A DNA stretch of 64,000 bases from the IMG/VR virus record IMGVR_UViG_3300049218_000083, positions 69,861-133,860 of that record. The stretch is one strand, 5' to 3'. The translations under genes and the position numbers were made by a program. This DNA is from a virus. A model generated the notes under the pieces. That model saw only the letters and a list, made by a program, of their open reading frames with translations. It made no database searches and was not told the origin of the DNA. Numbering within the stretch: position 1 is the first letter of the stretch; each line of letters begins with the position of its first letter. Below are positions 9,809-49,034 of this stretch, piece by piece.

Positions 9809-10958
9809 ATTTGTCAATTAACTCCCGAGTTATTACAGCCATTTCCTGGAATGTCAACTGCACATCGATGCGCAATGGAGATCCGTCGTTGAATGTTGTC
9901 CAAGAACCAGCGCCAGCATAGTTCACGTTGATGTTCGTCAAAGCGCAAGTGGAAATACGAGCGATGCTCTGGTTCTCAGCCTGCATGAAGTAGAATGAGA
10001 TGTCGAACTGCGCTGGTGGAATGAAGTAACGACCACCTGCTTCACTGCTGACTTCTGGAGCCGCAAATGACTTGAAAGTCTTGATGATGTTAGCGATTGC
10101 AACAGACTCTTGCTGGGATCGAGGAATGAAATGGAAGTCAAACTGGAACTGACGATTCTCGGTTTGCTTGAACAACATTTCAACGTGAGGGTTGACAGCT
10201 GCACCGATTGACTTCAATGTCAAATCAGTGAAACCTGGACCAACACCACCGGAAGCTGACAACAGATCCGCGCCAAGTTCACCAGACTGCGCTGCGTTGA
10301 AGCTCTTGTTTGGGTTATGCGTGAAAAGGTTGTTGCTCAGAGTAGATGCCAAATCCTTTGCGATCTTTTTGTCATCATCGAAGCTGCCGCCGATTTGCGC
10401 ATACTTACCGATGTTTCCGCCGGCATCCGTTGCGCTTACTCCACCCCATGTATGCGTGTACTGTGTAGCAATCGTATCAGGCATGTAGATGGCGATGGAC
10501 TGTTTGATTCGTACAAGCTTCGGCTTGAGATTCAAGGTAGTCAACAGCGTGCCACCGAGCGCACCGCCAGCTGCTGCAACGGCTGCTGCCTTGCCTCCTG
10601 ACTGGATTGCTGTTACACCGCTAGTCAAGAGAATAGCACCACCGAGATTTTGTCCAGTCGTAACTGGTGCGTAGACTCCACCCTGAGACTGAAGCGTGTT
10701 GTAATTCTGAACAGACGCGATGTTAGCATTTGCCACAGCCTGGTTGCTGTTCTTGAGATACTTGGATGACTCAGGAAGGTTAATGTTGAAGACTACATAA
10801 TGAGGAACATCGTTTGTTCCAATGCCTTCAAGCGGATAACGAAGCTGCTGTAGAGAGTATGGATCCTTTGACAATGCGGCTGTTGGTCCCACACCTGTTT
10901 GCTGAGAACCATCGGTTGGTGGTGAGACTGCTGTTACTGAATAGGGATTCTGTGGCAT
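9798..10958 (-). CDS. gp48: Baseplate tail-tube cap gp48
   Basis: LRYPL..HYVVF; AVNPHVEMLFKQTENRQFQFDFHFIPRSQQES; CALTNINVNY. Confidence 0.88.
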   Translation of the reverse strand: MPQNPYSVTAVSPPTDGSQQTGVGPTAALSKDPYSLQQLRYPLEGIGTNDVPHYVVFNINLPESSKYLKNSNQAVANANIASVQNYNTLQSQGGVYAPVTTGQNLGGAILLTSGVTAIQSGGKAAAVAAAGGALGGTLLTTLNLKPKLVRIKQSIAIYMPDTIATQYTHTWGGVSATDAGGNIGKYAQIGGSFDDDKKIAKDLASTLSNNLFTHNPNKSFNAAQSGELGADLLSASGGVGPGFTDLTLKSIGAAVNPHVEMLFKQTENRQFQFDFHFIPRSQQESVAIANIIKTFKSFAAPEVSSEAGGRYFIPPAQFDISFYFMQAENQSIARISTCALTNINVNYAGAGSWTTFNDGSPLRIDVQLTFQEMAVITRELIDKYGY

Positions 10959-13253: not shown

Positions 13254-14009
13254 ATGAAACTGCCTCAAATCTCACTTCCCACTTACGAAGTGAAGCTCCT
13301 ATCTAAGAAGGATCCAGTAAAGATCCGTCCGTTCACGGTTCGTGAAGAGAAGCTCATGCTCATGGCTGTCGAAGCCAAGGATCTAGAGTCAACGGTTAAT
13401 GCTCTCAAGCAAATCATCAGCAACTGCGTGATCGGTGAGTTTGACGTTGAAGAAATGCCAATGATCGACATGGAAATCATGTTCCTCAACCTTCGAGCTC
13501 GTTCTGTTGGTGAAATCGGCACCCAATTCTACAAGTGCAAAAACGAAGTAACAATCAATCCTCCACCAAACCCAGACAAGACAACCACGAAAGAGTGCGG
13601 CATGTTGTTGGAAATTCCAATCAACTTCCTTGAAGTGCCTATCGTAAACAAGGACACAGAGACGAACATCAAGTTCACGGATGAGATCGGCGTCAAACTC
13701 AAGTTCCCATCCTTCTCTCTGATCCGCAAGCTTACCAAGGCCAACCCAGAAAAGGATGACATGGAATTGATCATTGCGACTAACTGCCTCGATATGATCT
13801 ATGACAAGGATACAGTCTACCATGCAAAGGATTGTACGCAAGTCGAACTGGAAGAATTCATCCTTGGTCTTCGAACAGAAGACTATGACAAGATCAAGGA
13901 ATTCTGCAACAAGGTCCCAAAGACCCAACTGATCTCCAAGAAGCAGTGTAAGAAGTGTGGATATGAACACACCTTCACGCTGGAGGGTATCGAAGATTTT
14001 TTCGTGTAG
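13254..14009 (+). CDS. gp26: Baseplate hub assembly chaperone gp26
   Basis: KIRPFTVREEKLMLMA; LNLRARSVGE; C-term CKKCGYEHTFTLEGIEDFF. Confidence 0.9.
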   Translation: MKLPQISLPTYEVKLLSKKDPVKIRPFTVREEKLMLMAVEAKDLESTVNALKQIISNCVIGEFDVEEMPMIDMEIMFLNLRARSVGEIGTQFYKCKNEVTINPPPNPDKTTTKECGMLLEIPINFLEVPIVNKDTETNIKFTDEIGVKLKFPSFSLIRKLTKANPEKDDMELIIATNCLDMIYDKDTVYHAKDCTQVELEEFILGLRTEDYDKIKEFCNKVPKTQLISKKQCKKCGYEHTFTLEGIEDFFV

Positions 14010-14221
14010 GATTTTGTCATGATTCGCTAGAGGCTCAGTTTCGACTGAACCATAGCTTGCTGTATCATCAGAAAATTGATTTCCGAATGTTTGATGATAT
14101 GATTCCTTGGGAGCGTGATGTTCATATCGCTATGATCATCAAGAACGTCGAAGAGGACAATGAGAAAGAGAAGCTGAAGCAACAAGAACGAAGAGCGCGT
14201 AGGGCAGCTGGTAGACGATAA
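13997..14221 (+). CDS. gp51: gp51 baseplate hub assembly catalyst frame; no suitable own start, probably reached by -1 frameshift from gp26
   Basis: Manual translation: CHDSLEAQFRLNHSLLYHQK..MIPWERDVHIAM; in -1 frame from T TTT TTC at 13997-14003; stop overlaps next ATG. Confidence 0.75.
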   Translation, partial: FFRVGFCHDSLEAQFRLNHSLLYHQKIDFRMFDDMIPWERDVHIAMIIKNVEEDNEKEKLKQQERRARRAAGRR

Positions 14222-16071
14222 TGGCAATTAAAAAACCAACAGTAATGACACAACAATCTGGACCTTCTAATCCAGACGCGAAGTTGACAACACCATCTGG
14301 TATGTCAATCAACGAAATCGCATTGCTGTTGAAAAGTCAGGACCCAACCATCAAGTTTTCTGACGCCAAGAAGAAAGCGCAAGAACTCAAGGATGCTGAA
14401 AGCACTGCCAAGTATGGACGAGGTTGTGAGCTCGGTAACAAAATCATCGGCGGTGTAATCGGTAAGAAGCTGGCAGCCAAAGTCACCAAAGCATTCACAC
14501 CGAAAGACAAGATCAAAGAAGCCAAGTCAACGTTGAAGGATTTCAGCGAAAAGCAAATGGCTGAGCAGATGAAACCACAGCTTGAGATGCAGAAAATCAA
14601 AGTGGATCTTCAAACCATCCTTGGTAAGCTTGACACTCTCAGCAGCGAAATCAAAGAACTCAAGACCAGTTCCGAGAAGGTTGCTGCCGCACCTGTAACA
14701 GCACCAACAGCCAGCCCAGCATACGCAGCCAAGGTTGTGCCAATGAAGGCTGAAAAGAGCGATGACGAACTTGACCTTGAGAAGATCATCAAGAAACAGT
14801 TCCCTGACTTCAAGAAGGCTGATATTGACAAGTTGGTTGCGTCAACCAAGCATCTCGAGACGTTGGAAGCCAAGGCATTGGCTGTTCTTCAGGCTCGTGG
14901 TCGTGCTGAAAAGATTCCTAAACCTCAAGTCGCGCCGCAGGTAGCCAAAGTCCAGGCTGATATGAAGCAGGAGAATGAGGATCGTCGAACTGCTGAAATG
15001 AAAAAGCAGAACGAACAGAACAAAACGACTGAGAAGCCAACGGTTGAACAGGTCAAGCCTGCACCAGCTACTCCGCCACCTCCTCCAAAGGTTGAAGAAG
15101 TTAAGCCACCAACACCGGCTGTTGCTGCTAAGTCAGCTGACACGGATGAAGATCAGAAAGAAGCTCGTGAGATCCTCAACGCTCAGAAAGAAGAGAAGGC
15201 TCGCAAGGAGCAAGAGAAGCGTGAAGAGGCTATCGAAAAGACTCTGGAAGATATCAAGAAAAAGCTGGCCGACAACGGTATCGCTGACTTGATTGCTATG
15301 GCTTTGGGTGCTTTGGGATCCAAGCTGTTCAAGCTGATTGGCAAAGGCATGTGGACATTGGTCAAACTGGCTGGTAAGGCTGCTTGGGAGTCAGTCAAGC
15401 TTGCTTGGAAGGGTGCTAAAGCATTGTTCAGCAGCCTCAAGAATCTCTTGAAGGGTGGAGAGAAAGCCGGAGCCAAGGCTGGTGAAAAGGCTGCTGAGAA
15501 AGCTGCCGTCAAGGGTGGTGAGAAGGCTCTCGAGAAAGCTGGTGAGAAAGTTGGTGCTGAAGAAGCAGCTAAACTCGGCGGCAAAACCTTGGCGAAGTCA
15601 TTCCTGAAGAAGATTCCTTTGATTGGTGCGGTTGCTGGTTTGGCATTCGCTGCTTCCGATTTGCTTGAAGGCGACACGGTTGGTGCCGGTTTGGATGCCG
15701 CATCCGGACTTGTGTCTATCATCCCTGGCGTCGGTACAGCTGCATCCATTGCGTTGGACGCAACCAAGGCTGCACGTGACTTTGGTGTAATCGGTGACAA
15801 GGCTGGAACCATGTCGGCGAAGTCTGACAAGGCTGACGCTCTCGCGAAGGCTAATGAAGACAAGGATGAGATTCCAGACATGGACGATGATAGTGATGGT
15901 CCAAGTCAGCCTGTAGTTGTACACCAAGACAACCGCAAAACGATTGTAGCAGGCGGTGGTGATTCAGGCTCTACCATAATCAAGGTGCGCAACGATGAGC
16001 CTTCAGTCGCTGGCTTGACCGCATCCCTGTTTGACCATCCTGTGTCATACGGTGCCGTCTATCGTATGTAA
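14221..16071 (+). CDS. Tape-measure/baseplate hub gp29-like protein
   Basis: Ala/Lys/Glu-rich helical protein; KKIPLIGAVAGLAFA..GDTVGAGLDAASG; AGEKAAEK repeats; follows gp26/51. Confidence 0.6.
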   Translation: MAIKKPTVMTQQSGPSNPDAKLTTPSGMSINEIALLLKSQDPTIKFSDAKKKAQELKDAESTAKYGRGCELGNKIIGGVIGKKLAAKVTKAFTPKDKIKEAKSTLKDFSEKQMAEQMKPQLEMQKIKVDLQTILGKLDTLSSEIKELKTSSEKVAAAPVTAPTASPAYAAKVVPMKAEKSDDELDLEKIIKKQFPDFKKADIDKLVASTKHLETLEAKALAVLQARGRAEKIPKPQVAPQVAKVQADMKQENEDRRTAEMKKQNEQNKTTEKPTVEQVKPAPATPPPPPKVEEVKPPTPAVAAKSADTDEDQKEAREILNAQKEEKARKEQEKREEAIEKTLEDIKKKLADNGIADLIAMALGALGSKLFKLIGKGMWTLVKLAGKAAWESVKLAWKGAKALFSSLKNLLKGGEKAGAKAGEKAAEKAAVKGGEKALEKAGEKVGAEEAAKLGGKTLAKSFLKKIPLIGAVAGLAFAASDLLEGDTVGAGLDAASGLVSIIPGVGTAASIALDATKAARDFGVIGDKAGTMSAKSDKADALAKANEDKDEIPDMDDDSDGPSQPVVVHQDNRKTIVAGGGDSGSTIIKVRNDEPSVAGLTASLFDHPVSYGAVYRM

Positions 16072-21816: not shown

Positions 21817-22524
21817 TCATTCGTGCAGTTCTTCGTAGCGAATTCGCGCTATTATGTAAGCTTTCACCAGTGGTCCACGCACAATATCGTCGACACCCAT
21901 CTGGATGAAGTCAAACTGAGGCACCTGTTCGAGAATCGCTTTGAACTTGACGAAACCTGTCGTATCGTTCTTTTTTACAGTCAAGTCGTTCTGATAGAAA
22001 TCGCCGCAGAAAACTACTCGGCAGTTGTTGCCTATGCGGGTGATGATCGTGTTTAGTTCTTCGAACTTCATGTTCTGGAACTCATCGATAATTACGATAC
22101 AATTCTGGAATGTGTTACCACGCAAAAACGAAGTCGTGACGAACTCTACGATCCCTTCTTCCTTCAGCTTGTCATACGCATCAGCGCGTCCAAACAACTC
22201 TGTGAAGATGGCTGCATATGGTGGCTCGTAGATTGCTGCCTTCTCTTCAGCAGAACCTGGAAGGAAGCCGACGTCTCTAGATGGAACGGCTGATCGGACG
22301 ATCAGAATTTTCTTGTATGGTGATGTCACAGGAAGCATCTCCCTGAGACCAAGGAACAGACTCAGGAATGACTTACCAGTTCCTGGACAACCGTGCAAGA
22401 AGATGTATTTTCCATTGGCATATGACTCGAACAGCTTGTGTTGATTTGGTGTGAGCGGTTTGATCTCTTTTAGCGTAAGTCCCAACCTGCTGAATGCTGA
22501 TTGCTGCCTTTGCTTCTTAGCCAT
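21817..22524 (-). CDS. phoH: PhoH-family ATPase
   Basis: GCPGTGKS; GFLPG; SFLRGNTF; IIDEFQN; GDFYQND; DIVR. Confidence 0.93.
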   Translation of the reverse strand: MAKKQRQQSAFSRLGLTLKEIKPLTPNQHKLFESYANGKYIFLHGCPGTGKSFLSLFLGLREMLPVTSPYKKILIVRSAVPSRDVGFLPGSAEEKAAIYEPPYAAIFTELFGRADAYDKLKEEGIVEFVTTSFLRGNTFQNCIVIIDEFQNMKFEELNTIITRIGNNCRVVFCGDFYQNDLTVKKNDTTGFVKFKAILEQVPQFDFIQMGVDDIVRGPLVKAYIIARIRYEELHE

Positions 22525-22557
22525 TGAAAGTCTTCCTTTGTTGTTGCTGTGTTCACG

Positions 22558-23016
22558 TTAGTTCAATGTTCTTTTTGGAGACAAGTCATCTTCGGTGTAT
22601 TGAGCCTTCGCATCGTCGCAGTCATCTTCGACTAATGAGAGCTCGTCAGCCTCGAATGCGTTTATGTCTTCATCATGACCATCATACAAACCGATGTACG
22701 CTTCTGGATCTTCTTCGCCAGTAACGGTGTTGATACCAGTGTACAAAACAGAGAATGGGTGGACCTTAGCTTGGCAGTCTTCACAAAGGAATTCTTCGAT
22801 GAGGTTGTCGTATCCGTCATCGATAAGGATGCAGATACCTTCGTGGCCGGCATGAACGGCACACATTTTGGTTTTGTCGCGGGGATCAGGAATGAGAAGT
22901 GCTTTGGAACGGTTTTCCTGAGGCATCCATTCCAGTACTTGATTGAGAGCAGTGGTAAGGATAGTGACAACATCATCATGACTAAGGGAAGTCTTCTTGT
23001 CGTCGTCACTCACCAT
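22558..23016 (-). CDS. Acidic hypothetical protein
   Basis: ORF with AGGAG RBS; CEDC. Confidence 0.6.
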   Translation of the reverse strand: MVSDDDKKTSLSHDDVVTILTTALNQVLEWMPQENRSKALLIPDPRDKTKMCAVHAGHEGICILIDDGYDNLIEEFLCEDCQAKVHPFSVLYTGINTVTGEEDPEAYIGLYDGHDEDINAFEADELSLVEDDCDDAKAQYTEDDLSPKRTLN

Positions 23017-23035
23017 CGCTCTCCTGTTAGAAAAG

Positions 23036-23320
23036 AGTGGCAGCTTATGAGGAACCCGGAAAGCTGCCGAAACCTGGTGAGAAATTACGCTGCTAGGCGG
23101 AATTCCTCAGATGCATTTTCAGTTGCATTTATACTGTTTTGCTTCATTTAGATGGTCGAACCACCAAGACGATAGCTTGTCTGTTGCCTTTACTTTTATC
23201 TCTTCCCGTCGAAAACTATTTCGCCCCCGAAGGTCGCCTAGCAGGGCGATAGTGGTGGAGGCGTCGGTTTCGCAACCGAGTCCGCAAAGCATTATAGCAA
23301 AGGAATTACAACATTCTGTT
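23036..23320 (-). ncRNA. ssrA: Circularly permuted (two-piece) tmRNA
   Basis: T-arm plus CGCCTCC-A-CCA (ends 23253), 24-nt spacer hairpin, then GGGGGCG..TTCGAC (G1=23228); G3-U70; tag ATENASEEFRLAA* at 23126-23085 after ATAAAT; P2 pairing; 3' hairpin GGCAGCTT/AAGCTGCC. Confidence 0.92.
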
Positions 23321-23908
23321 CATTTTATTTAGAGATTCATATTCGGTTCTATAGAACTCTCTTCTTTCAATTTTATTTAGCCCCTCATCAAGATTTGTCA
23401 AAAGTCCACCATGAGCAACCAACCCAAATATGTCAATTAACTTTGATTCATAGGATAATGCGTCAAGTTCGGAAATGTCAGTTATAAGTTTTACAACTTT
23501 TACTTCTTCACCAAAAGCCTCAATTTTTAATTTTATTTTTCTATGGGTCTCATTTCTATTTAATTCGTAACATCTATTACCCATACCCTTTCCAATGTAA
23601 AATGGCATATGTGTCATACCAAGAGTTGCGCCAAATGTAGTTTGCCCAGCTCTACCAATAGCAATTTTTTTAGTTGTATCTAAATGAGCATAAACATAAT
23701 ATTCTTTATTCGGATCTAATTCCAAATTCGAATACACAGATTTTATATCTGTATCATAAATTTTTCTACAATTATCAATTATTTGTCTAACCTTTTCGTT
23801 TTTTGATGGTTTATTTGATATTTGGGCAAGTCGACCCTTGACCTTACCGTAGTGTTCAAGTAACTTGACTGGGTCATCCCAGTCAAGTATAAATGTCTTT
23901 TCGTTCAT
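23306..23908 (-). CDS. GIY-YIG (LEM3-like) endonuclease, very AT-rich
   Basis: YYVYAHLD..PFYIGKGMGNR..ALSYESKLIDIFG..LTN; 3' end overlaps tmRNA 5' end. Confidence 0.78.
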   Translation of the reverse strand: MNEKTFILDWDDPVKLLEHYGKVKGRLAQISNKPSKNEKVRQIIDNCRKIYDTDIKSVYSNLELDPNKEYYVYAHLDTTKKIAIGRAGQTTFGATLGMTHMPFYIGKGMGNRCYELNRNETHRKIKLKIEAFGEEVKVVKLITDISELDALSYESKLIDIFGLVAHGGLLTNLDEGLNKIERREFYRTEYESLNKMNRML

Positions 23909-24555
23909 TTGAACCTCAACTTTTTGTATGAAAGAAGACGTTTTCTCTTGCCCGCAGGGATCGGAGCAGTTGCAAACGCTGTCATCACATTGCCAATGTC
24001 CGGTTCATAAAACGGATAGGTCGTAACACCAAGTTCCTTACAGTCATTGAGAGCTACAGCCATCTCACTTAAATCATGAACTCCTATCACTGCGAAGTAA
24101 AGCTCATCAAAGAATGATTGACTGAGAGCACCACTACGATGACCCATCTTCGCAGCAGCATGTGATGCCTGAACCAGCTGATACTCAGGTGAGATATCCT
24201 GGCGAACGAAAATGTAAATGTAATGGCGGTCAGTTGGTGCTGGCTCGTATGACTTATACAGTTCCTTGAGAACTTCATGGAAACGCTTGCGCTCTTCCTC
24301 TGTCTCGCAGAATGTTTCAGTCGCCCACTGGGCTTCTCTGAGTGCAACCGCAACGGTGTCATATGGCAAACGACCGTTGTCAAGTTTCTTCTTTCTGGTG
24401 ATTGGACTGAATCCGGAACGGATGATTTGGTTGGCGACCTTTACTGCGTCGTCACCATACTCCATACCGATGCAGATAGCACGTTGAACAACATGCCATC
24501 GTTCGAGTTGCTTGGTCTTAGCCAAGTCTTTGAAAATTGCTCTAAAGTTCTTCAT
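23905..24555 (-). CDS. Peptidyl-tRNA hydrolase 2 (PTH2)-like domain protein with N-terminal extension
   Basis: YIFVRQDISPEYQLVQASHAA..FYEPDIGNVMTAFATAP. Confidence 0.75.
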   Translation of the reverse strand: MKNFRAIFKDLAKTKQLERWHVVQRAICIGMEYGDDAVKVANQIIRSGFSPITRKKKLDNGRLPYDTVAVALREAQWATETFCETEEERKRFHEVLKELYKSYEPAPTDRHYIYIFVRQDISPEYQLVQASHAAAKMGHRSGALSQSFFDELYFAVIGVHDLSEMAVALNDCKELGVTTYPFYEPDIGNVMTAFATAPIPAGKRKRLLSYKKLRFK

Positions 24556-24774
24556 TGAAATTCTCCATCTATTGATACTGAATGATAATCGTCTCAAGCA
24601 GTAGCAACGAGGAGGACCTCGCGCATAACAAAAGTTCTACGTGTCAGGAACCTAGATTTCGAATTCTTGTTTCATAATTATGTCCTTGGTGGAATATCGC
24701 CCCAACCAGTGGATGCATTTCCACCTGGAAGGATAGCGACCCAGCCGTCTTTTTCGAACCAAGTCTTGACCATG

Positions 24775-25128
24775 TTAGCTCTTCTTGTGGAACAAGCCAG
24801 AAATCTTGTTTTCGGTTTCATGAAGAAGCGCAAGAGCGTCAGCTTCAAGCTTCTTAGCTTCGTCTTCGACCTTGTCTACAAAGCTCTCAGCAGTGTTTGC
24901 AGCGGTCTTCTCGTCAGCCTTTACGGTTGATACGACGGTGTTGGCTTCAGCCTTCACATCGGTTTCAACTTTCGGCCAGTCCTTTTCGAACAGGGAGAAA
25001 ATTGCGCGACCTTCTTCATCGACCTTGCCAGTTGCCTTAGCAGCTGCTGGAAGCAAGTTGCCTTCGATTACAACGACGGCAGAACGATCGACCTTGTCAA
25101 GCTTTTGGATCAGTGTTACAAGACTCAT
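24775..25128 (-). CDS. Helical Ala/Lys/Glu-rich hypothetical protein
   Basis: ORF with GGAG RBS. Confidence 0.6.
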   Translation of the reverse strand: MSLVTLIQKLDKVDRSAVVVIEGNLLPAAAKATGKVDEEGRAIFSLFEKDWPKVETDVKAEANTVVSTVKADEKTAANTAESFVDKVEDEAKKLEADALALLHETENKISGLFHKKS

Positions 25129-25144
25129 ATTTCTCTCCAGGAAG

Positions 25145-25221
25145 TGGCGCGCGAGGCGGGCATCGAACCCGCAACCTTCAGTTTTAGAGACTGCGCTCTA
25201 GCCAAGTTGAGCTACACGCGC
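25145..25221 (-). tRNA. Amber suppressor tRNA (anticodon CUA), Trp-like body
   Basis: Loop CTCTAAA; TTCGA T-loop; G73; encoded CCA. Confidence 0.88.
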
Positions 25222-25236
25222 ATCGTTACTTCCTAT

Positions 25237-25734
25237 TTAGCCTTGCGGACCCTTCGGTGGAAGCTGACGGTGAGGAGCACCATGCTGTTCCATCGCACAA
25301 ACACCCATTCCTGCAACCTTCCGCATGATGTCCAGAGCCTTCGGCTTCGCAGTGTTGCTTGCTTCACGACTCAGGATATGCTTCGCTTCGTTGATGTAGT
25401 CTTCCATGTAAGTGAACCACTCTTCCAACGAATGCTTACCTTCCGTTTCGTATGCACGTTCGCTATCTAGCGCCGCATACACCTGGGCTCGGCTTGCTGT
25501 CATCACTGCGTTTCCACGCTTGCTGAATTGTGCTTCAGCCTGTGCCAACACTCCGGAATTGATCGAACCATAGTTCGAGAACCAGCTACCGACCACCAGT
25601 CCTTCATGACTGACTCGTACAGAAATCGTTCCGTTGTCGAGATTCTCTACCTTGACATCGGCACCAAGTCTGCCAACCTTTGCTGCGTCAAGCATGAAAG
25701 CCTTGACATCTGTATACTGTTTTGCGTTTGACAT
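25237..25734 (-). CDS. Hypothetical protein
   Basis: 165-aa ORF with helical C-terminal domain. Confidence 0.6.
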   Translation of the reverse strand: MSNAKQYTDVKAFMLDAAKVGRLGADVKVENLDNGTISVRVSHEGLVVGSWFSNYGSINSGVLAQAEAQFSKRGNAVMTASRAQVYAALDSERAYETEGKHSLEEWFTYMEDYINEAKHILSREASNTAKPKALDIMRKVAGMGVCAMEQHGAPHRQLPPKGPQG

Positions 25735-25735
25735 G

Positions 25736-26059
25736 TTACATTAACCCCAATCGTTGTTTCTCTTGTATCTCAGCTATCTTCGCCTGGATGTCAGCTTGAC
25801 GTTTCCGCTCAGCAATCACATGCTCCAATTTCTGAAACGCTTGTTCCTGAACTATTGCGGCCAGCAACGTGCTTTGGTCAACCAACGCAGTATGCCAAAC
25901 CCCAACTCCTCCACCGACCTCGTCCGAAATGTATTCTCGACAGCCTGTGGCTTCATCAACTTTCCAATAAAGAGTACAGCCATTGGGCAATCTTACTTCG
26001 CCTGTTGTGGGTGGCGGTGGAAAAGTATCACCCAATGGCTTGTACAAGTCTTCGATCAT
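25736..26059 (-). CDS. Hypothetical protein
   Basis: Start MIEDLYK coupled to upstream stop. Confidence 0.55.
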   Translation of the reverse strand: MIEDLYKPLGDTFPPPPTTGEVRLPNGCTLYWKVDEATGCREYISDEVGGGVGVWHTALVDQSTLLAAIVQEQAFQKLEHVIAERKRQADIQAKIAEIQEKQRLGLM

Positions 26060-26208
26060 TCTATCGGATCCTTGCTGTTCCAAAACACATTTTCCTGAAC
26101 GATCACACCTTCGTATCGACAATCAGCTCTATGTGATGCAATTTTCGTCCAAACGTACACATCACGTTTGAACGTGTCACCAATTGCTAGATCGCCGAAT
26201 GTCTTCAT
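26056..26208 (-). CDS. Small hypothetical protein (50 aa)
   Basis: MKTFGDLAIGDTF..; ATGA overlaps on both sides. Confidence 0.55.
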   Translation of the reverse strand: MKTFGDLAIGDTFKRDVYVWTKIASHRADCRYEGVIVQENVFWNSKDPIE

Positions 26209-26927
26209 TTCTTCTTTTCAGCCTTCTTTTTGGCTTCCTTCTCAGCGTTCAGTCGTTCCTGGAACGCAAGAGGGTCATCCATAAATTCCTGGAGACGCTG
26301 TTGGCCTTTGTATGACGGTTCAATGAACACGGCAGGCATTGGCGTTTCTTCAACAGCCATTATTATAACTGATTGCTGTGGCATTTCTCCAAATCTTTCC
26401 TGGTACATGCGAGAATAAATCGCAGTCTGTATCCAGTAAGTCGTAATCCATTCTTCCTGCTTCTCACGCGTGGACGTCTTCAAGTCAACCGTCGAAAAGA
26501 TCCGATCATAGTCAGCCATGATATCAGGCGTGCCAGCAAGTTTCAGTTCATCGCTGTAGATAGCCTTTTCCATCATACGGATGTTGTTCAGTTTCTCGAG
26601 CTCCGGCTTGATCTTCAGGAATAGAGCCTTGTTGAACAAATCTTCATTGAGCATCTTACGATAGCCGAGCTCATCGTTCATCAGATACTTCTCAGTCATC
26701 TTGTGAACATACGAGCCACGATCTGTAGCATGACGCGACTGACTAGCAGCTTTTGCTTCACCAATGCGCTTCTTCCACTTGACGAGGAAGGACTTGTCCC
26801 AGTGTCGACCGATGTACGTTGTTACGGACTCATACCGAGCACCCTCGGGAGTCAAATAGTGACGTACACCGTCTTCCGCCGTGTGAACTGACATCACAGG
26901 CGGAGTTACAAAACAATGATTAAACAT
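26205..26927 (-). CDS. PD-(D/E)XK RecB/Cas4-like exonuclease
   Basis: YESVTT; ATDRGSYVH; AGTPD..VDLKTS; QTAIY. Confidence 0.85.
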   Translation of the reverse strand: MFNHCFVTPPVMSVHTAEDGVRHYLTPEGARYESVTTYIGRHWDKSFLVKWKKRIGEAKAASQSRHATDRGSYVHKMTEKYLMNDELGYRKMLNEDLFNKALFLKIKPELEKLNNIRMMEKAIYSDELKLAGTPDIMADYDRIFSTVDLKTSTREKQEEWITTYWIQTAIYSRMYQERFGEMPQQSVIIMAVEETPMPAVFIEPSYKGQQRLQEFMDDPLAFQERLNAEKEAKKKAEKKK

Positions 26928-39255: not shown

Positions 39256-39582
39256 TTACTTCACCTGGACGTTCATCGCTGACGTTTTGTTCTGGGTCAC
39301 AAATCCGACATTGCCTTTGGTCACATGAATGACTGTGGCTGTCTTCCAATGAAGTTTGGTCACGTTGGAGCTGCTACCATTCAACGGAACTCCAAATACC
39401 AACTCAACTCGATCGTTCTTTTTGAGTCCCAGGCTTTCGTCAAGGTGAATCAAGCAGCCACCAATGCTGACGTTGACAACCTTACCGACCTGGCGTTTCT
39501 CACCAATTTTGCACAGGACAAAAATCCGTCCAACAGGTAGAAACCGTTGGTTGAGTCTTTTCTCTTCGCCCGAATAAGTCAT
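39256..39582 (-). CDS. PilZ-domain protein
   Basis: RLNQR (RxxxR) and NVSIGG (D/NxSxxG); ORF-track 5' extension is occupied by tRNA-Thr. Confidence 0.78.
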   Translation of the reverse strand: MTYSGEEKRLNQRFLPVGRIFVLCKIGEKRQVGKVVNVSIGGCLIHLDESLGLKKNDRVELVFGVPLNGSSSNVTKLHWKTATVIHVTKGNVGFVTQNKTSAMNVQVK

Positions 39583-40472: not shown

Positions 40473-40838
40473 TTAAACTTTCTTGGCCTTTTGAACTGCT
40501 TTCTTCGCAGCTTCAATTCTAGCGCGTTCTTTCTTAACCACCTTCTCCATCTCGAGTATCTTGGCCTTTGCTTGAAGCATGATCTCGATGGCCTTGTCGA
40601 TCTTCTCGAGTTTCATCTCGGAGTCGGAGTCGTATTCTTCGAAGTCCCAAGTGATCACGCGATTGCAATCACCAAGACTCATGGTGAAGTCAACGTTGAT
40701 GTAATCCTTGTCTGGCGAATCAGCCTTGCTGACATAGACGTGCGCTTTGTAGCGAATGAAGCTGCCGGTGTCGAGTGGATCGATAAAGTCTCCACCAGTG
40801 ACACGGATCAGGTCATCGCGATTCTTTTTCTTCGGCAT
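40473..40838 (-). CDS. Hypothetical protein
   Basis: 121 aa, coiled-coil C-term. Confidence 0.6.
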   Translation of the reverse strand: MPKKKNRDDLIRVTGGDFIDPLDTGSFIRYKAHVYVSKADSPDKDYINVDFTMSLGDCNRVITWDFEEYDSDSEMKLEKIDKAIEIMLQAKAKILEMEKVVKKERARIEAAKKAVQKAKKV

Positions 40839-41214
40839 CTACTTCTCCATCTGGTAAAACTGCGTCCTTGGGAACTTCTTTCCAAAGACCATCATCTTTG
40901 ACTTCCACTTTGATTTGTCGCATCTGGCGCGCAACATTGTCCTGGATCACTGCCTCGGTGCCGTTGCGTCGCATGATTTCCATCTTGTGCCACACCTTGA
41001 ATTTATCAGTGTTGCACATACGTTCAAAGGCAGTGCTGCGGTTTTGGCGCTGTACTCTAGAGTCTTCTGCATACCCATGGGCACCACTGGCTCGGTGGGT
41101 ACAGTGAACCGCTGAGTTCGTCTTATTCTTCTTCTGACCACCATTGCCGGTGCCGCGAGTGTAGGACCAATCGCAGTCGGCAGCGGTAACAGAGAAGAGT
41201 AACTCGCGAGCCAT
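40813..41214 (-). CDS. Class I release-factor-like GGQ peptidyl-tRNA hydrolase domain protein
   Basis: RGTGNGGQKKNKTNSAVHCTH..SRVQRQNR..A. Confidence 0.88.
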   Translation of the reverse strand: MARELLFSVTAADCDWSYTRGTGNGGQKKNKTNSAVHCTHRASGAHGYAEDSRVQRQNRSTAFERMCNTDKFKVWHKMEIMRRNGTEAVIQDNVARQMRQIKVEVKDDGLWKEVPKDAVLPDGEVDAEEKESR

Positions 41215-43145: not shown

Positions 43146-43220
43146 TGGAGTGGTCGACAGGATTCGAACCTGCATAGGACAGTTTTGCAGACTGCCGCGT
43201 GACCTTTCCGCCACGACCAC
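43146..43220 (-). tRNA. tRNA-Cys(GCA)
   Basis: Loop CTGCAAA; TCCA. Confidence 0.9.
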
Positions 43221-44397: not shown

Positions 44398-44474
44398 TGG
44401 TACCTCAGATGGGAGTCGAACCCACAGAAACTCATTTTTGAGACGAGTATGTTTGCCAATTACATCACTGAGGC
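44398..44474 (-). tRNA. tRNA-Leu(CAA), short variable arm
   Basis: Loop CTCAAAA. Confidence 0.87.
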
Positions 44475-44587: not shown

Positions 44588-44664
44588 TGGTGCCTCGTGC
44601 GAGATTCGAACTCGCAAAATTCTGGGTTTAAGTCAGACACGTTTGCCAATTACGTCAACAAGGC
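44588..44664 (-). tRNA. tRNA-Leu(TAA), short variable arm
   Basis: Loop CTTAAAC. Confidence 0.85.
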
Positions 44665-45969: not shown

Positions 45970-46046
45970 TGGTAGCGAGTGGCAGGATTCGAACCTGCGT
46001 TCTTCAGCTTATGAGACTGACGAGATGGCCTCTTCTCCACACCGCA
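45970..46046 (-). tRNA. tRNA-Met(CAT), initiator-like 1:72 mismatch
   Basis: Loop CTCATAA; T1:T72; lacks the three G-C anticodon pairs. Confidence 0.8.
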
Positions 46047-46697: not shown

Positions 46698-46774
46698 TGG
46701 TACTCGTGACAGGAGTTGAACCTGCAACATTCTGGTTCTAAGCCAGACGCGTCTGCCAATTGCGCCACACGAGC
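46698..46774 (-). tRNA. tRNA-Leu(TAG), short variable arm
   Basis: Loop CTTAGAA. Confidence 0.88.
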
Positions 46775-47790: not shown

Positions 47791-47865
47791 TGGAGCTCCC
47801 ACTCAGAATCGAACTGAGTTCTCAGGATTACAAAACCAGCGCATCGCCACGTATGCTTTGGGAGC
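47791..47865 (-). tRNA. tRNA-Thr(TGT)
   Basis: Loop TTTGTAA. Confidence 0.85.
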
Positions 47866-48538: not shown

Positions 48539-48613
48539 TGGCGGGATGCGAGGGATTCGAACCCCCATAACTAGTTTTGGAGTCTAGAGTCCTAGCCATT
48601 GGACGAGCAACCC
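48539..48613 (-). tRNA. tRNA-Trp(CCA)
   Basis: Loop CTCCAAA; G73. Confidence 0.83.
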
Positions 48614-48960: not shown

Positions 48961-49034
48961 TGGTGGGATTGATGGGAGTTAAACCACGTGACCTCTCACC
49001 GTTAAGTGAGCGCTCTACACTGAGCTACAACCCC
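48961..49034 (-). tRNA. Degenerate tRNA-Val-like (AAC?)
   Basis: 6-nt loop TTAACG; irregular T-arm. Confidence 0.5.

Follow-up and report, generated by a model that had tools for sequence, protein, structure and literature searches.

A tRNA with an amber anticodon and probable tRNA-Trp ancestry occupies a conserved slot in a T4-like phage and its relatives

We found that a T4-like phage whose DNA is present in moss metagenomes carries an isolated tRNA gene with the anticodon CUA, and that related phages keep a stop-reading tRNA as well, most of them at the same spot. We consider it probable that this gene encodes a functional, late-expressed amber suppressor which descends from a tRNA-Trp and is charged by the host; more tentatively, we propose that it may help to maintain translation. 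The stretch of DNA analyzed here, referred to as the window, comprises 64,000 nucleotides and belongs to one contig of 166,743 bp, of which it covers bases 69861-133860. The GC content of the contig is 47.7%, and the record is rated 98% complete. The genome is that of a T4-like myovirus, with genes for baseplate wedge and hub proteins, a major head protein, portal, sheath, and tail fibres, and it also encodes Nampt and ribonucleotide reductase.

ARAGORN called a 77-nt tRNA at positions 25145-25221 on the minus strand. Its anticodon, CUA, is at 25185-25187 and appears as TAG in the plus-strand letters; the discriminator base is G73, and the CCA end is encoded. The Rfam tRNA family RF00005 matched the same segment with 49.6 bits, clearly exceeding the gathering score of 29 (E 1.3e-7 in the window and 8.2e-10 locally), a score in the lower part of the range of this genome's tRNAs (42.8-66.6 bits), and homologues in the same slot of other phages agree with the call. 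These results confirm the complete cloverleaf with the loop CU-CUA-AA, G73, and encoded CCA that a first-pass annotation of this DNA had described. The cloverleaf consists of a 7-bp acceptor stem, a normal D arm with GG in its loop, a 7-nt anticodon loop (C-U-CUA-A-A, which has U33 and a purine at position 37), a 5-nt variable loop, and a T arm with TTCGATG. A U6.U67 mismatch is the single flaw in the acceptor stem. The anticodon arm is non-canonical in that nucleotide 26 is absent (a gap at the model position) and positions 27 and 43 form a G27.A43 mismatch instead of a pair; together with U6.U67, these features could lower the activity of the tRNA. ARAGORN labels the gene tRNA-Pyl. The body of tRNA-Pyl is atypical, with a D loop without G18G19 and a T loop without TTCGA. 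We rejected this label since the tRNA has GG in its D loop and TTCGATG in its T arm, and the name thus follows from the anticodon alone.

The first-pass annotation had pointed out that the case for a suppressor would fall if reads showed CCA at 25185-25187. Contigs from two other moss samples (X2, record 3, and X4, record 5) span the anticodon and are identical to our sequence at these three positions, so CUA is not the assembly error of one data set. RNA contigs from a moss metatranscriptome cover 24524-24969, which contains downstream genes; the tRNA lies outside the covered part. According to ARAGORN, the window contains 37 tRNA genes, every one of which lies on the minus strand. The nearest to the suppressor is Thr-CGU at 39582, 14.4 kb away, which bears out the isolation of about 14 kb noted earlier, and the main tRNA array begins at 43146. 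The separate, ordinary tRNA-Trp(CCA) that had been placed near 48539 is indeed a member of this array (48539-48613, minus strand, ARAGORN).

We asked from which isotype the suppressor tRNA descended. The anticodon loop alone cannot settle this, since the tRNAs for Trp(CCA), Gln(CUG), Lys(CUU), and Glu(CUC) that the phage encodes all have loops that differ from it by a single base. There is no paralogue among the genome's 38 other tRNAs, and the suppressor agrees with the phage's own tRNA-Trp at 56 of 77 positions, no better than with several other tRNAs. To test the origin without the bias of a seed, we used the full-length tRNA as the query of a blastn search in 50,697 phage records. The best seven matches were annotated tRNA-Trp genes of Caulobacter jumbo phages, with 89.1% identity over nucleotides 5-67 (E 7e-13); among these records the tRNA-Trp genes of phages RB23, C1, C2, J4, and BL47 (Bertelyvirus) are thus the nearest. 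In RB23, the one tRNA-Trp match to which it was applied, ARAGORN confirmed the anticodon CCA. Outside the acceptor stem, 53 of 59 core positions are identical between the suppressor and the RB23 tRNA-Trp, compared to 42 for the phage's own tRNA-Trp, and G73 is shared. Compared with the RB23 gene, the suppressor carries U in place of C35, is one base shorter at position 26/27, and differs by a compensated change of one pair in the anticodon stem. The acceptor stem also differs: the Caulobacter phage tRNAs have the acceptor strand AGGGGUG, along with the anticodon CCA, nucleotide 26, and a U27-A43 pair. Furthermore, the Caulobacter phage genes are ordinary members of tRNA arrays, whereas the suppressor is isolated. 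These comparisons support the earlier suggestion that the suppressor tRNA is likely derived from a tRNA-Trp; in our reading, its ancestor was a tRNA-Trp of the proteobacterial type.

The next blastn match was an unannotated CUA tRNA in a 595-kb uncultured phage (LR756511.1; L225 295-368), with 84.5% identity over 69 nt. Assigning an isotype by the shared 5' acceptor strand was set aside; its phage matches were mixed and its bacterial matches mostly Arg and Ile, and we did not use such sets for identity since the pattern itself had selected them. Exact-pattern scans of IMG/VR for the anticodon and T arm returned nothing, and when the T arm and acceptor together served as the pattern, the sole match was a chance one in a high-GC coding region.

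The phage genome contains no synthetase of the TrpRS/TyrRS class or of the GlnRS/GluRS class, so a host synthetase would have to charge the suppressor. The natural point of comparison is Su7 (supU) of E. coli, which is a tRNA-Trp with its anticodon changed from CCA to CUA, a laboratory mutant of a host gene that is charged mostly with Gln. Both have G73 and a body of the Trp type, and in both the loop CU-CCA-AA is altered only in that C35 has become U. The phage tRNA differs in being natural and conserved, in its acceptor pairs G1-C72 and C2-G71, and in its missing nucleotide 26. G73 is the major determinant of recognition by TrpRS, while the acceptor pairs A1-U72, G2-C71, and G3-C70 are minor determinants for the E. 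coli enzyme. The suppressor, with G1-C72, C2-G71, and G3-C70, agrees with this set only at the third pair. By analogy with Su7, the amino acid would likely be Trp, Gln, or both.

We next considered whether the tRNA is conserved in other phages. Relatives were found through the 117-aa protein encoded downstream of the tRNA and the protein that follows it, which gave syntenic contigs with 50-70% protein identity. A CUA tRNA lies in the same slot in L207, L210 (the same as contig L213), L212, L214, L216, L218, and L219, and a UCA (opal-reading) tRNA lies there in L208 (9909-9983) and L209 (582-656), which have the same sequence. L217 has no tRNA in the 8.8 kb examined; all other relatives examined have a slot tRNA. 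The order of the slot is conserved as well: a TAAATA-like motif, the stop-reading tRNA, the 117-aa gene (in most), and a gene for a protein with a Pth2 fold. CTAAATA or ATAAATA lies 10-13 nt before most slot tRNAs, with TAAATA-like motifs in L207, L208, L210, L212, L214, and L219, and within approximately 20 nt after most slot tRNAs, the homologue of the 117-aa gene begins with its RBS and ATG. Directly after the slot tRNA, L216 has a HicB-like gene and L218 a 56-aa ORF. In L207, L218, and L219, a tmRNA gene lies at the corresponding position.

Five distinct slot tRNAs were registered by hand and their stems compared. Pairing is intact in 99 of 105 stem cells, and 11 of the 21 stem positions have changed on both sides. 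The tRNA fold is therefore under selection, with stems preserved by compensatory changes, and in every case the anticodon can still pair with a stop codon. Nine homologues, including the one in the cultured Stenotrophomonas phage DLP6 and that of L207, have a stop-complementary anticodon (CUA in eight, UCA in one), and all keep U33 and A37. Furthermore, L212 (CUA) and L208 (UCA) share one tRNA body, so the type of reader in this slot has changed between amber and opal. The absence of nucleotide 26 with a 27.43 mismatch is common to L207 and L219, and is therefore a trait of the lineage. Given that the fold, the slot, and the stop-complementary anticodon are all conserved, our data suggest that decoding of a stop codon is the selected function. 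The designation of the tRNA as an amber suppressor, put forward from the window alone, fits both its CUA anticodon and the conservation of this anticodon in relatives, and since these relatives, one of them cultured, also keep a stop-reading tRNA, most at the same spot, the tRNA probably matters to the phage.

The slot tRNA of L207, a 177.5-kb relative (9907-9983), has an anticodon loop of 8 nt (A-C-U-CUA-A-A), for which ARAGORN names no anticodon. Such a loop might reflect a sequencing error or a defect, or it might mark a four-base decoder.

The cultured homologue is the tRNA-Sup-CTA of Stenotrophomonas phage vB_SmaS-DLP_6 (KU682439.2, AAY80_195). This related phage is T4-like as well, and its genome of 168 kb contains about 30 tRNAs along with a permuted tmRNA. 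The bodies of the two suppressors are homologous, sharing the acceptor strand GCGCGAU, G73, the loop CUCUAAA, and a similar T arm, and a conserved intergenic element of about 100 nt follows the suppressor in both genomes. In DLP6, by contrast, the suppressor stands at the end of the tRNA array and lacks the 117-aa gene, and the ORF after it has no BLASTP similarity to the Pth2-like protein. The paper on DLP6 makes no mention of a suppressor (PMC5349666).

The first-pass annotation had placed the tRNA behind a late-like promoter. The motif CTAAATA lies at 25240-25234 (25234-25240 on the minus strand), 12 nt upstream of the 5' end of the tRNA, and shares bases with the TAA that ends the upstream ORF. 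Genome-wide, there are 26 copies of CTAAATA on the coding (minus) strand compared to 2 on the other strand, mostly 27-40 nt before start codons, and copies precede the genes for head scaffold (start 6807), tail sheath (17486), and a baseplate wedge protein (69155). The genome also encodes a homologue (E 1.3e-35) of the protein annotated in DLP6 as a late-transcription sigma factor. Given the strand bias, the positions before structural genes, and this homologue, it is reasonable to regard the motif as a late promoter of the T4 type, and the earlier description holds. The motif is not special to the suppressor tRNA, as the tmRNA (two copies, at 23332 and 23380) and the main tRNA array (two copies) share it. 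We found no terminator-like site on the tRNA strand within 22500-26500. Since, furthermore, the 117-aa ORF (24775-25128, minus strand) starts 17 nt after the tRNA with the RBS GGAGAG, the tRNA probably forms part of an mRNA leader and is probably co-transcribed with this ORF.

The 117-aa protein, the conserved partner of the slot tRNA, has no Pfam or PHROG family, and its structure model is of low confidence (pLDDT 56). One source applies the name RaiA to a relative of this protein, which we did not adopt given this low pLDDT. Downstream, at approximately 24556-24660 on the minus strand, alignment revealed the conserved intergenic element of about 100 nt, which contains a hairpin and lies upstream of the Pth2-like gene. 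This element is also found in L207, L208, L210, L212, and DLP6 (L223 9900-10007), and it matches no Rfam family at gathering score. The gene that follows (23905-24555, minus strand) encodes a 216-aa protein, the AlphaFold model of which has a pLDDT of 92.9. The top 14 PDB matches of this model in Foldseek are peptidyl-tRNA hydrolases or look-alike proteins from structural genomics (3erj, 1q7s, 1xty, and others), with E values down to 3.3e-5 and TM scores by target of 0.70-0.75 for the top 13. Sequence searches of this family gave no Pfam match and no PDB match, so the identification comes from fold comparison; the model indicates that the C-terminal approximately 110 residues have the fold of peptidyl-tRNA hydrolase 2 (Pth2). 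At the downstream end of the module lies a permuted tmRNA gene (23036-23357, minus strand; Rfam tmRNA_permuted, 100.7 bits).

Based on these data, we propose the following course of events. Late in infection, transcription would start at the CTAAATA T4-type promoter, read with the phage's gp55-like factor. The suppressor tRNA would lead a small conserved unit composed of the tRNA, the 117-aa protein, the Pth2-fold hydrolase, and the tmRNA. The short 5' leader would be trimmed by RNase P, while the 3' CCA is already encoded, and a host synthetase would charge the tRNA. The charged tRNA may then compete with release factor 1 at UAG, leading to partial read-through late in infection. As part of a translation-maintenance kit, it might allow ribosomes to get past a stop codon when the matching release factor is in short supply or inactivated at that stage. 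We prefer a role in translation maintenance because the neighbours include a Pth2-like protein and a tmRNA and because the slot holds a reader of UAG or of UGA; from these two observations we infer that the benefit may be the bypass of a release factor. UAG and UGA each depend on a single release factor.

We examined how the phage itself uses TAG. In a greedy ORF set that covers 91% of the genome, 112 ORFs end in TAA, 94 in TGA, and 33 (14%) in TAG. About 19 of the TAG-ending genes are credible genome-wide, and roughly ten of them are real ORFs of the window, in line with the count of about ten that had been given for it. TAG terminates the genes for a DnaB-like helicase, a ClpP-like protease, and an HNH endonuclease. 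Reading through TAG in all frames, we found no long coding frame interrupted by TAG in this 98%-complete genome, which extends to the whole phage what had been noted for the window. Frames that appeared to be interrupted were antisense shadows, noise in the tRNA array, or same-frame neighbours with their own start sites. The phage uses the standard genetic code. L207 and L208 likewise use both TAG and TGA as ordinary stops, and the stop codons of orthologues vary freely among the relatives and do not track the type of anticodon in the slot.

TAG is unevenly distributed, ending none of the 51 ORFs of the structural blocks compared to 19 of 140 elsewhere (p = 0.002). We considered this scarcity as a sign of avoidance of a late suppressor and dropped it as evidence. 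DLP6 has the same bias (1 of 38 structural genes compared to 16 of 95 elsewhere) and is no clean control, as it also has a suppressor, and a preference for TAA in highly expressed genes explains the bias equally well. A gp26-like gene (in the region 13990-14230 of the window) ends in TAG (14007-14009), as it does in L208. Read-through of this TAG into the gp51-like frame was ruled out, as that frame is at -1.

The best surviving alternative, which we nevertheless regard as unlikely, is programmed read-through, in which the suppressor would produce minor long isoforms of one or a few specific UAG-ending phage proteins late in infection. The A1 protein of Q-beta is a product of this type, made by read-through of UGA. 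The credible TAG-ending genes offer potential targets, among them a gene for an HPD-motif membrane protein (G000 40505-40912) that lies in frame with the next gene at a distance of 12 codons, and others with extensions of 23-43 codons. However, the gene after the HPD-motif gene has its own RBS and GTG start, and in-frame extensions after TAG are no longer than those after the other stops (medians of 15 codons after TAG, 12 after TAA, and 14 after TGA). The 117-aa gene itself seemed a candidate, as its homologue ends in TAG in L212, which has a CUA tRNA, and in TGA in L208 (101 aa), which has a UCA tRNA, but it ends in TAA in the other four CUA phages compared. The free exchange of stops among orthologues described above also argues against specific targets, and the same in-silico test applied to the TAG stops of phage XacN1 gave no target (PMC5852040). 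The HPD-motif protein mentioned above, encoded in the region G000:C1:40139-40912 outside the window, is a 135-aa, TAG-ending protein with an N-terminal hydrophobic segment and a J-domain-like HPD motif.

A role without decoding is less probable still. Here the tRNA would act as a processing signal by which RNase P or another RNase releases the mRNA behind it, or as a decoy for a host anticodon nuclease, and its anticodon would be incidental. The position of the tRNA against the RBS of the next gene, the lack of a terminator-like site on its strand within 22500-26500, and its atypical anticodon arm would suit such a role. A pure processing signal would not constrain the three anticodon bases, however, and nine homologues with diverged stems keep a stop-complementary anticodon together with U33 and A37, which makes it unlikely.

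Recoding of TAG at an early or partial stage, on the way to genetic code 15 and with late or lysis genes that contain TAG in frame, had been one of the options raised for this tRNA, and we found it unsupported and consider it highly improbable. Suppressors do accompany recoding in numerous phages, and standard-code relatives of recoded phages can gain them first (10.1101/2021.08.26.457843); TAG is also absent from the 51 structural-block ORFs. This scarcity is equally present in DLP6, though, and TAG ends conserved genes while interrupting none of the long ORFs. Precursors of recoded phages are low in GC and depleted of TAG (10.1101/2021.08.26.457843), whereas TAG makes up 14% of stops here at a GC content of 47.7%. 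Furthermore, diverged standard-code relatives have kept the slot, which therefore represents a stable state and not a transition. With the standard code in use, recoding is not what the tRNA is for.

A pseudogene, formed by duplication of a tRNA-Trp and carrying a C35-to-U change by chance, might be suggested by U6.U67, G27.A43, the missing nucleotide 26, and an Rfam score in the genome's lower range. This reading is similarly improbable, as L207 and L219 share the missing nucleotide and the 27.43 mismatch (not a sign of recent decay), compensatory changes have kept all four stems, and the slot, promoter-like motif, and stop-type anticodon are conserved.

A functional suppressor with a role in translation maintenance, which we favor over these alternatives, would not be the first natural suppressor in a phage. 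Natural suppressors occur, unexplained, in the standard-code, tRNA-rich phages XacN1 (PMC5852040), phage G (PMC12484599), and phiKp24 (PMC8386662); with DLP6, they recur across large phages of this kind. In XacN1, a 385-kb jumbo phage of Xanthomonas, the CUA suppressors lie in the terminal repeats within a tRNA cluster (PMC5852040). By its description, XacN1 resembles our phage in its amber suppressors, its wealth of tRNAs, and its standard code. Phages that use code 15 (crAss-like and Lak phages) also encode a CUA tRNA, which is thought to act late and to be charged by a host synthetase (10.1101/2021.08.26.457843). In contrast to those phages, we found no in-frame TAG here, and TAG ends about 19 genes.

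What is new here compared to the known suppressors is a conserved module together with a cultured relative. The occurrence of one slot with a late-like motif and hydrolase and tmRNA neighbours across phages of 50-70% identity indicates that the gene is no accident. More speculatively, and with considerable doubt, the slot may be a clade-wide, late stop-reading position within a translation-rescue module, serving as an infection-stage backup for termination or as a counter-defence. If so, it would bypass whichever of the stops with a single release factor is bottlenecked or attacked, a use of natural suppressors so far undescribed. The purpose of the suppressor can be tested at the bench since DLP6, which carries the homologue, is cultured on Stenotrophomonas maltophilia.

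We made several further observations in the vicinity of the suppressor and among the other genes of the window. The ORF upstream of the tRNA (165 aa; 25237-25734, minus strand) matches a widespread phage protein family of approximately 90 aa with its C-terminal half, and may be a fusion or may have been called too long. The homologues of approximately 90 aa sit in unrelated, non-syntenic phages and were of no help, and a neighbour of the PD-(D/E)XK type has no close relative in IMG/VR. Elsewhere in the window, a protein with a GGQ RF-1 domain is encoded, which also fits our favored reading. Rfam matched three tRNAs that are absent from the ARAGORN list (45974-46045, 47794-47865, and 48964-49034, minus strand; 42.8-51.2 bits). 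Bacterial tRNA-Leu normally has a long extra arm. We found that three tRNAs with the Leu anticodons CAA, UAA, and UAG (44398-44474, 44588-44664, and 46698-46774, respectively, all on the minus strand) are 77 nt long with a variable loop of 5 nt, and that a fourth tRNA with a Leu anticodon (AAG, 84 nt) does carry the long extra arm.
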